Part shown: one piece after another, positions 13,579 to 14,866 of the stretch
Layout: every line of letters begins with the position of its first letter
Numbering within the stretch: the stretch's first letter is position 1
NCBI RefSeq assembly: GCF_002571385.2
Contig: NW_019218148.1
Coordinates: 199,433-263,432 of the forward strand
DNA from: Stylophora pistillata
Lineage: Eukaryota
Reading direction: 5' to 3'
Length of the DNA: 64,000 nt
Translations under genes and position numbers: made by a program
The notes under the pieces: generated by a model
What the model saw: only the letters and a program-made list of their open reading frames with translations
Databases searched by the model: none
Told to the model about the DNA's origin: nothing

Positions 13579-14866
13579 TTAGCGACAGCCACAGGCGCTT
13601 GCAGTTAAGTCAAAAATAGTCTTTCTCACCAAGTTACCATTGGACTCTCTTTTCAAAACATCAAGTCCTTGATATTTTGTCGGAACGCATTTACTCTTCA
13701 AGAGATTCCCGTGAACTGCTGGGGACGAAAACACATGTCTCCGTTTGGCGAGTTCCAAGATGAATGCATGGGGTGTTATGTATTTCGAGAAGGAACTCAT
13801 GCTGTTGGCTACATCACATCGGCCATAACACAAAGAAAAGTTGATAAGCCCTTTTGGTCGAACATACACTTTGGACAGGCCCAGTTGTGCAAACGAGGTT
13901 CTGAAGCTGTGAAGTCGACATTCAGTCGGGAACCGACCACTGCGGAGCCTATAACGTCTATTTGGCCTATTACCAGCAAAGAAAGATCTTGTAAACGTAG
14001 TTGAAATACTCTTGAAATAGGCCACGAGAAAAACGGGTCCATATTTTCGCCACTCTTCAAACTTCTTAAATTCTTTCCGCGTGGCGTCTGTGACGTTAAA
14101 CTCAACTTTCACTTTACCAAGACTTCTTTGTTCCTTCCACTGATCCAAAAGCCAAGATGTGTCATAGAGGTCTATCGTTTTTGTTGTGTTTACAAGCAAA
14201 TCTTGGGTGTTGTAAGCCACTTTAAATCCATCCTCGTCAAGGACGTTAAAAGCATAGATAACCTTATCTTTTGTGGGAAATTTAAGAAAGGCCAAGTGAA
14301 GTTTGAACGTGTTCTTGATGACGATGGCTGAGGTATCAAAGTGGGATGTGAACTGTATTCGATGCTGATCTTCAACTTTGGTGTTTCGACGAAGAAATTC
14401 TGAAAAAAGAAGGCATTTTTTACCCTAAGCTCTTATTGATCAATTAAGAAAACGCACTATACTTTCAAATCTTTCTTCACGATTGTTTATAACAAAAAAG
14501 AGAAAAAACACTTAGCAACATGTGCATTTTTCGGTACGAGATTTTTCATTTACCAAATATTATCGTATGGGTATGCGCGCCACAGTTTGAAATCGAAATG
14601 TGTAAAAGGAATATTTTGTCCAACTTTAAAGGTGCAAATCGAAGGGAAAGAGCATGAGAATACCATTTCAAGCGCGATTCAAACATACCTTTGTCAAGTA
14701 TAAAGAGAATATTTTCATCTTTTGAAATCCTCAGATCCTTTGACAGTCCCTCGACGTAGTCTGTAAATGTAGCGCTACGCTGGTCAACAGATGTCCTTGC
14801 CGAGCTGAAAACAATCATGAAAACAAGAAAAGGGAACAAAAATTGTGCTTTCCTGAATTGGTTCAT
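13579..14866 (-). CDS. Divergent TGF-beta superfamily ligand precursor, ~332 aa, 2 exons
   Basis: Exon 1 14866-14689 has a hydrophobic signal peptide. Exon 2 14399-13579 joins in phase 1 for 999 nt total. Furin-type RRYRLR site, then cystine knot C...CYGRC...CVP...CGCR*. AATAAA on the minus strand at ~13291-13296. Confidence 0.9.

Follow-up and report, generated by a model that had tools for sequence, protein, structure and literature searches.

A spliced TGF-beta-family ligand gene

The stretch of Stylophora pistillata DNA analysed here (the window, 64,000 nucleotides) carries on its minus strand a two-exon gene for a TGF-beta-family ligand with a precursor of 332 aa. A minus-strand open reading frame, 13579-14424 from stop to stop, contains every fragment quoted in the original prediction, and the gene reaches beyond the segment considered there, with exon 1 and an intron upstream. 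The ligand matches NCBI XP_022800554.1, named 'protein decapentaplegic-like [Stylophora pistillata]'; a shorter gene model of the locus carries the name GDF9, and an automatic annotation (PFX19352.1) a name of the BMP15/GDF9 type. The features, in window coordinates, are as follows.

14689..14866, minus strand: coding exon 1, with the start codon, a hydrophobic, signal-peptide-like N-terminus (judged by eye) and the start of the prodomain (XP_022800554.1 match, spliced RNA contigs)
14400..14688, minus strand: intron, 289 nt, GT-AG (joint 14399-14689 in RNA contigs)
13579..14399, minus strand: coding exon 2, with the remaining prodomain, processing region, mature cystine-knot domain and stop
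13951..14399, minus strand: beta-rich prodomain, probably of the TGF-beta arm type (low-confidence model, Atlas PF00688 clusters)
13936..13950, minus strand: conserved motif, basic-hydrophobic-Arg-Ser-Gly (R210-G214), a candidate non-furin processing site (11 of the 11 relatives printed)
13582..13920, minus strand: mature cystine-knot domain, C220-R332, six Cys
13867..13878, minus strand: finger-1 WxxW site, here L234..V237 (type I receptor pocket)
13741..13773, minus strand: heel helix 269-279, with conserved H270, A271 and L276 (dimer core; helix H53-63 of the mature model)
13690..13692, minus strand: K296 at the interchain-cysteine position (K in four, S in three, T and H in one each and C in two of the 11 core members)
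13660..13662, minus strand: D306, where canonical coral ligands have the knuckle serine (type II receptor site; no Ser in any of 14 clade rows)

The splice from 14399 to 14689, a skip of 289 nt, is present in contigs of all four RNA runs, drawn from two studies; one RNA contig departs from the genomic sequence at 14399, an intron-reading contig also occurs in two RNA runs, and run X4 crosses the locus unspliced. Across eight runs compared, the Lys296 codon (AAA, 13690-13692) has no variant, and in run X14 a T>C change at 13661 replaces D306, at the knuckle position, with Gly. Elsewhere in the window, a NIF3/DUF34 gene (10255-12264, plus strand) stands tail-to-tail with the ligand gene, with a high-copy repeat between the two (about 12400-13000). 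A scan of metagenome contigs aimed at the order of genes in relatives gave 46 pattern matches, of which none could be confirmed. Further along are ankyrin and TRP-like ion-channel exons (19967-24065, plus), a 732-aa frame without a Pfam match (38181-40376, plus) and two rhodopsin-type GPCRs (51259-52398, plus; 61629-62675, minus).

The protein scores 58.9 bits against the Pfam TGF_beta domain (PF00019; cut-off 27), and it has the CxGxC and CxC motifs that mark the cystine knot of the TGF-beta superfamily, with which the structural model and the fold matches agree. Exactly six Cys occur in its whole length (220, 250, 254, 297, 329 and 331), and K296 occupies the interchain position, bearing out the original prediction of six knot cysteines with KCVP in place of CCVP. 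The mature domain was modelled at a pLDDT of 87.7 from an alignment rich in BMP-type rows, and its comparison with solved structures is non-discriminating, the top rows being tied within 1 Z unit. At full length the model is of low confidence (pLDDT 58.6), with Foldseek matches to pro-TGF-beta1 and pro-activin A over 319-339 columns. Pfam PF00688, searched on the ligand, was not detected, and comparison of the prodomain with the Atlas PF00688 clusters gave a score of 0.91; the modelled prodomain is probably of the TGF-beta arm type. The furin consensus R-X-[R/K]-R is found within 30 residues of the first Cys in none of the 11 clade members, and any RxxR in the same span in three. Among fly, mouse and worm ligands, Maverick and TIG-3 are described in PMC7017013 as the only ones without a furin consensus.

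Dimer core and receptor faces in an orphan clade

Relatives of the ligand fall into eight close clusters, with more among the 54 matches of a wider search; the clade is seen in stony corals, its named members coming from Stylophora, Pocillopora meandrina and Desmophyllum pertusum. When 72 mature domains were placed in a tree, 11 of them, the window protein included, formed a clade with support of 98/96, which is joined by a second ligand of this genome (L024) and by P0045 to make 13 rows (99/94). When neurturins were added and 13 redundant rows removed, clade support was 96/88 and 90/83. Under a mixture model with 44 rows the core clade kept 94/84 and the wider clade only 23/80, a drop that counts against the explanation we favour below. 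A literature search, with most subscription journals outside its reach, found no paper on the clade, and Nematostella ligand lists in unsurveyed papers could already include an orthologue. L024 (L024/L028:1492-1884, plus strand, G000:C1584) is the closest paralogue in the genome, with 34% identity and CC retained; an upstream exon was looked for there and none found, a long N stretch lying just upstream. The genome also holds an expanded clade of divergent ligands that lack the finger-1 Trp and keep CC (L010-L015 and L022, partly clustered, with four on G000:C70), as well as L018, another divergent copy, which has a stop within its frame.

Conservation within the orphan clade is uneven. In fingers 1 and 2, which are well conserved, distant members share 17-27 of about 35 residues, and E275, R280, Y302 and I321 are invariant and specific to the clade, while the BMP-type Pro241 and His270 are likewise invariant; conservation is lowest in the pre-helix loop, at the type I site, with 0-5 of 12 residues identical beyond the two closest relatives. 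Overall, it is higher in the mature domain (98/113) than in the prodomain (108/145).

The interchain cysteine is absent from nine of the 11 core members, which have K, S, T or H in its place, and kept in two, both from Desmophyllum (P0029 and P0037); outside the core, L024 has C and P0045 has Y. The Lys of the window protein recurs in Pocillopora P0015 and others. At least three state changes are needed to account for this position among the 13 rows, and the Cys therefore looks dispensable. The cysteine is thus labile in the clade, neither a private error nor a fixed loss. The original prediction had held that orthologues retaining CC would make the lysine an allele or a sequencing error: such orthologues do exist, but with nine of 11 members lacking CC that conclusion falls. 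One relative, P0006, reads CKC at the fourth knot Cys, and the Cys that precedes it by two residues could be a shifted interchain cysteine.

At the finger-1 site the predicted loss of both Trp of the LGW..W motif is confirmed (L234 and V237) and extends to the whole core clade, with Leu at the first WxxW position in 11 of 11 members and Trp at neither, against Trp/Trp in five of five canonical coral ligands. Neither this loss nor that of the cysteine is rare in S. pistillata. The genome gives 25 TGF-beta domain matches, of which six were left out as partial or stop-containing; among the 19 intact ligand domains counted, four lack the interchain Cys, ten lack both Trp and two lack both features. 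The interchain Cys is also missing from L005, L006, L019 and L021 (M, T, M and M at the site), and L019 has an in-frame TGA.

Residue equivalences to BMP2 were drawn by aligning the clade with the coral BMP2/4-like ligand, the BMP2 positions considered being S88 and L51, as numbered in the papers cited, together with A34, L100 and Y103. On this basis, the knuckle Ser equivalent to S88 is present in none of 14 clade rows and in five of five canonical coral ligands, its place being filled by six different residues (D/G/N/R/K/T) among the 11 members; the L51-like position lacks a hydrophobic residue in ten of 11 core members, and, at the type II site, the L100-like and A34-like positions are variable. 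In PMC11239237, WxxW is tied to type I and S88 to type II receptor binding.

The dimer core has fared differently. The heel helix was modelled at a pLDDT of about 81; all 11 core members retain H270, F229 and L232, and ten retain A271 and L276, residues expected at the packing surface of a dimer. With helix and core residues conserved, a non-covalent dimer is likelier than the monomer that the original prediction entertained. The clade thus keeps the dimer core, whereas its receptor hot-spots of both types, I and II, and the furin consensus are gone, a combination newly described here.

We suggest that the ligand is likely secreted and would pair non-covalently through its heel helix, either with itself or with another BMP/activin-type ligand, the prodomain, cut at the candidate non-furin site or remaining attached, possibly helping the pairing. 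With the interchain Cys and the receptor hot-spot residues absent, the canonical receptors would be only weakly engaged, and BMP/activin Smad signalling would likely be damped rather than triggered, through half-dead heterodimers or occupation of a co-receptor, in a working mode like that proposed for sea-urchin Panda and for inhibin-alpha. We judge the chances of this account of a poorly engaging, dampening orphan-clade ligand to be evenly balanced. The antagonist role, which had been put forward in the original prediction, is plausible by analogy with Panda, for which a heterodimer model has been proposed and whose activity depends on a proline (PMC11239237). That knuckle proline was sought in the clade alignment and is absent, which counts against antagonism.

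Conversely, the ligand could be an ordinary agonist using a private code, a non-covalent dimer acting through surfaces other than the hot-spots of BMP2, either on coral type I/II receptors that co-evolved with it or on a co-receptor. The conserved fingers and the four invariant residues noted above would fit such a role, as would the type I-like receptor ectodomains present in the genome (read by eye). Because ten of the 19 ligands lack both Trp, coral receptors may have co-evolved with them and still be activated. Moreover, GDF9 and BMP15 signal (PMC7017013) though they lack the Cys (PMC4564238, S5 Fig legend). Two points weigh on the other side: both canonical receptor sites are altered together, and the knuckle residue varies both among the 11 members and between S. 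pistillata runs, which suggests little constraint. We regard an agonist as a live but distinctly less probable account than damping.

Placement among ligand families

About 100 alignment columns cannot place the clade among the ligand families. AU tests marginally reject its grouping with BMP2/4 (p 0.044) and with BMP5-8 (p 0.050), which upholds the earlier view of a divergent cnidarian ligand outside these two groups, and they leave it free to join BMP15-like rows (p 0.25, 0.15), an activin-like ligand (0.22) or the neurturins, the sole stand-in for the GDNF family (p 0.52, 0.32). In both trees containing neurturins, the clade and these sequences share one weak group (38/80 and 55/59, that is 38-55% bootstrap); these joins are between long branches, which counts against kinship.

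The sequence comparisons tilt the same way in relative terms only. In a solved-structure search with the window protein, BMP6 is best (1.5e-7), ahead of GDF15 (6e-3) and artemin (0.05). The clade profile gives GDF15 49 bits and BMP6 63, GDF15 outranking GDF5 and BMP9, and artemin (29) outranking TGF-beta1; when a second divergent coral clade served as control, its profile gave GDF15 36 bits vs 82 for BMP2, with no GDNF-family chain among the best 60 of its 73 rows. Profile-profile scores for the clade are 96.5 with BMP15-like rows, a value inflated by the retrieval of those rows with the window query, 79 with BMP2/4/5-8, 75 with activin-like rows and 45.6 with neurturin, group labels that we assigned by motif. 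From the neurturin side the window clade is narrowly the top of six profiles (45.4 vs 42.2). Against a neurturin HMM (92 domains of 99 examined), clade member P0008 ranks second of 72, whereas the window protein ranks 29th, its 16.5 bits hardly differing from the 15.8 of a coral BMP5-8-like ligand.

The family's own marks are missing. GDNF-family ligands have seven Cys, CCRP among them, and FRxC ahead of the CxGxC. FRxC and CCRP are invariant in 11 of 11 neurturin-type rows, and neither these motifs nor the nine-Cys pattern, which PMC4564238 and PMC7299427 give for GDF15, Panda and Maverick, were found when sought in the window protein; its first knot Cys stands at residue 220 of 332, compared with 103-154 of 197-248 in four neurturins. 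By its defining motifs the ligand is a member of neither the GDNF nor the GDF15/Maverick group. The features on which the original prediction had based its GDF15/GDNF signature (LGL, CRLH..R.S and ACGC) do not discriminate, since P0049, which we take to be a BMP15-like protein, has CRLHSFR.SF..LGL too. What survives of the proposed likeness is the relative tilt of the profiles and a kinship that the trees do not reject; the motifs and the neurturin HMM do not sustain it, and a GDNF link for the ligand is not supported.

The search for receptors that had been proposed gave a partial answer. A GDNF-domain search of the genome returned a single match, in a single-exon GAS1-like gene (8e-23; L026:1312-2130, minus strand, G000:C757). 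Four exon-wise RET-domain searches, run without a positive control, gave nothing over the cut-off, those for CLD3 and CLD4 being empty, and a genome search with neurturin as query, likewise without a positive control, gave nothing. Several RET candidates were set aside: a sub-threshold RET CRD match sits over a kelch-like gene (read by eye), and RET CLD1 matches are ordinary cadherin repeats, one of them surrounded by CUB-like and peroxidase-like exons and no kinase motif over 50 kb. In a separate motif scan, four of five loci were chance matches. Plus-strand CUB-like, cadherin-like and peroxidase-like exons follow one another in series at L050-L054 (G000:C367:174000-224000), perhaps as an unusual mosaic gene (by eye). 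Ectodomain searches leave room for a Ret-like kinase, because Ret kinase motifs predate the Ret cadherin ectodomain (PMC8662651).

An early GDNF/GDF15/Maverick-type ligand, acting through a GFRalpha-like co-receptor such as GAS1 and a RET-like kinase, therefore has on its side the higher ranks of GDF15 and artemin for this clade than for the control, the weak tree group, the neurturin-side and P0008 scores, the GAS1-like gene and a furin consensus missing as in Maverick (PMC7017013). It has against it BMP6 as best solved match, the window protein's middling HMM rank and low neurturin profile score, six Cys rather than nine, no CCRP or FRxC and a long prodomain, and also the fact that another gene of the genome, L017, has neurturin as its top match. 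We consider it improbable. Its boldest form would make the clade a cnidarian sister of GDNF/GDF15/Maverick, a pre-bilaterian, Smad-independent ligand that had dropped both Ser/Thr-kinase receptor sites and relied on a co-receptor of the GAS1 type at a time when RET still lacked its cadherin ectodomain, and to this we likewise lend little credence. L017 itself (L017:1492-2310, minus strand, G000:C100; signal-peptide exon in L017:2718-3095, minus) matches neurturin best among solved structures (4.4e-7), then GDF11/GDF8 and GDF15; CC is retained, Trp is absent and there are extra Cys towards the N-terminus, and its AU test with neurturins gives p 0.47. These features make L017, more than the window gene, a candidate for a Maverick/Panda/GDNF-like ligand.

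Two further readings start from the missing cysteine. Lefty is not known to have a heel helix. A Lefty-like monomer that sequesters ligand or co-receptor would account for the lost Cys and the seemingly atypical processing, but not for the conserved heel helix and dimer core or for the two clade members that keep the Cys. Nor does the clade have the knuckle proline (D/G/N/R/K/T instead), and its finger-2 loop has about 5 residues vs the 8-12 of Lefty (PMC11239237), a ligand reported as bilaterian-specific in PMC7535936; such a monomer seems to us quite unlikely. A cnidarian orthologue of vertebrate BMP15/GDF9, as the PFX19352.1 annotation implies, could claim the top profile-profile score, the shared Cys loss and N-terminal motif and the unrejected AU grouping, yet the clade never grouped with BMP15-like rows in three trees, that score is inflated and the row label our own, and the Cys is kept in two of 11 members and in paralogue L024, leaving orthology very doubtful. 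Finally, a private allele, sequencing error or decaying pseudogene, to which only the CC of the two Desmophyllum proteins lends colour, is refuted to near certainty by the Lys shared with Pocillopora and others and by the RNA contigs, the AAA codon being three changes from one for Cys and invariant between runs, the frame intact and spliced, and the mature domain the better conserved part.

Significance and comparison with known ligands

Models of anthozoan axis patterning rest on a few canonical BMPs, yet 25 ligand matches came from this genome, and many of these are divergent. If damping by the orphan clade is true, the clade would represent a brake of the ligand type with an origin separate from those of Lefty, inhibin-alpha and Panda, and a clade whose members both have and lack the Cys offers a natural series for asking what purpose the interchain bond serves. 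Taken singly, none of the losses is new, which makes the finding moderately surprising unless the GDNF link is real. The dimer Cys is missing from Lefty, GDF3 and GDF9/BMP15 (PMC4564238, S5 Fig legend); the WxxW motif is divergent in Panda, in Maverick and in the sea-urchin Myostatin-like C, the last of which is also without the interchain Cys, as is a lancelet ligand (PMC11239237).

The canonical ligands share the fold, and BMP2/4 (Dpp) and BMP5-8 give the best sequence matches among solved structures, from which the RefSeq name 'decapentaplegic-like' derives. Identity is nevertheless about 25-30%, and WxxW, the knuckle Ser and the interchain Cys are absent from the window protein; the genome's own canonical BMP2/4 and BMP5-8 copies are, judged by their motifs, presumably L001 and L002. 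GDF9, BMP15 and GDF3 have likewise lost the interchain Cys and kept the heel helix, and the N-terminal motif is near that of BMP15-like rows; the clade differs in being separate in three trees, in a Cys that is labile rather than fixed and in the clade-wide loss of both Trp. The GDNF family (neurturin, with GDNF and artemin through PDB scores) resembles it in the finger-1 LGL, the lack of Trp, a long branch and weak co-placement, and differs in that the clade lacks CCRP, FRxC and the interchain Cys, retains Pro241 and His-Ala of the BMP type, has a long prodomain and scores low on the HMM. Myostatin-like C and the lancelet ligand are reported to share the absent dimer Cys and an acidic knuckle residue (PMC11239237), which in the window protein is Asp, but this Asp is unconserved in the clade (G, N, R, K and T elsewhere).

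Panda, Maverick and GDF15 have in common with the clade a divergent WxxW, a non-Ser knuckle and no L51-like residue (PMC4564238, PMC11239237), and Maverick also the missing furin consensus (PMC7017013). The WxxW and L51-like losses fit, but they are unspecific where so many ligands of this genome lack both Trp, and, going by the published descriptions, six Cys rather than nine and the lack of an interchain Cys and a knuckle proline set the clade apart. Panda, an antagonist with a proposed heterodimer model (PMC11239237), offers the best functional analogy, and by this likeness the ligand, a member of the TGF-beta superfamily, is most plausibly Panda- or inhibin-alpha-like in action.
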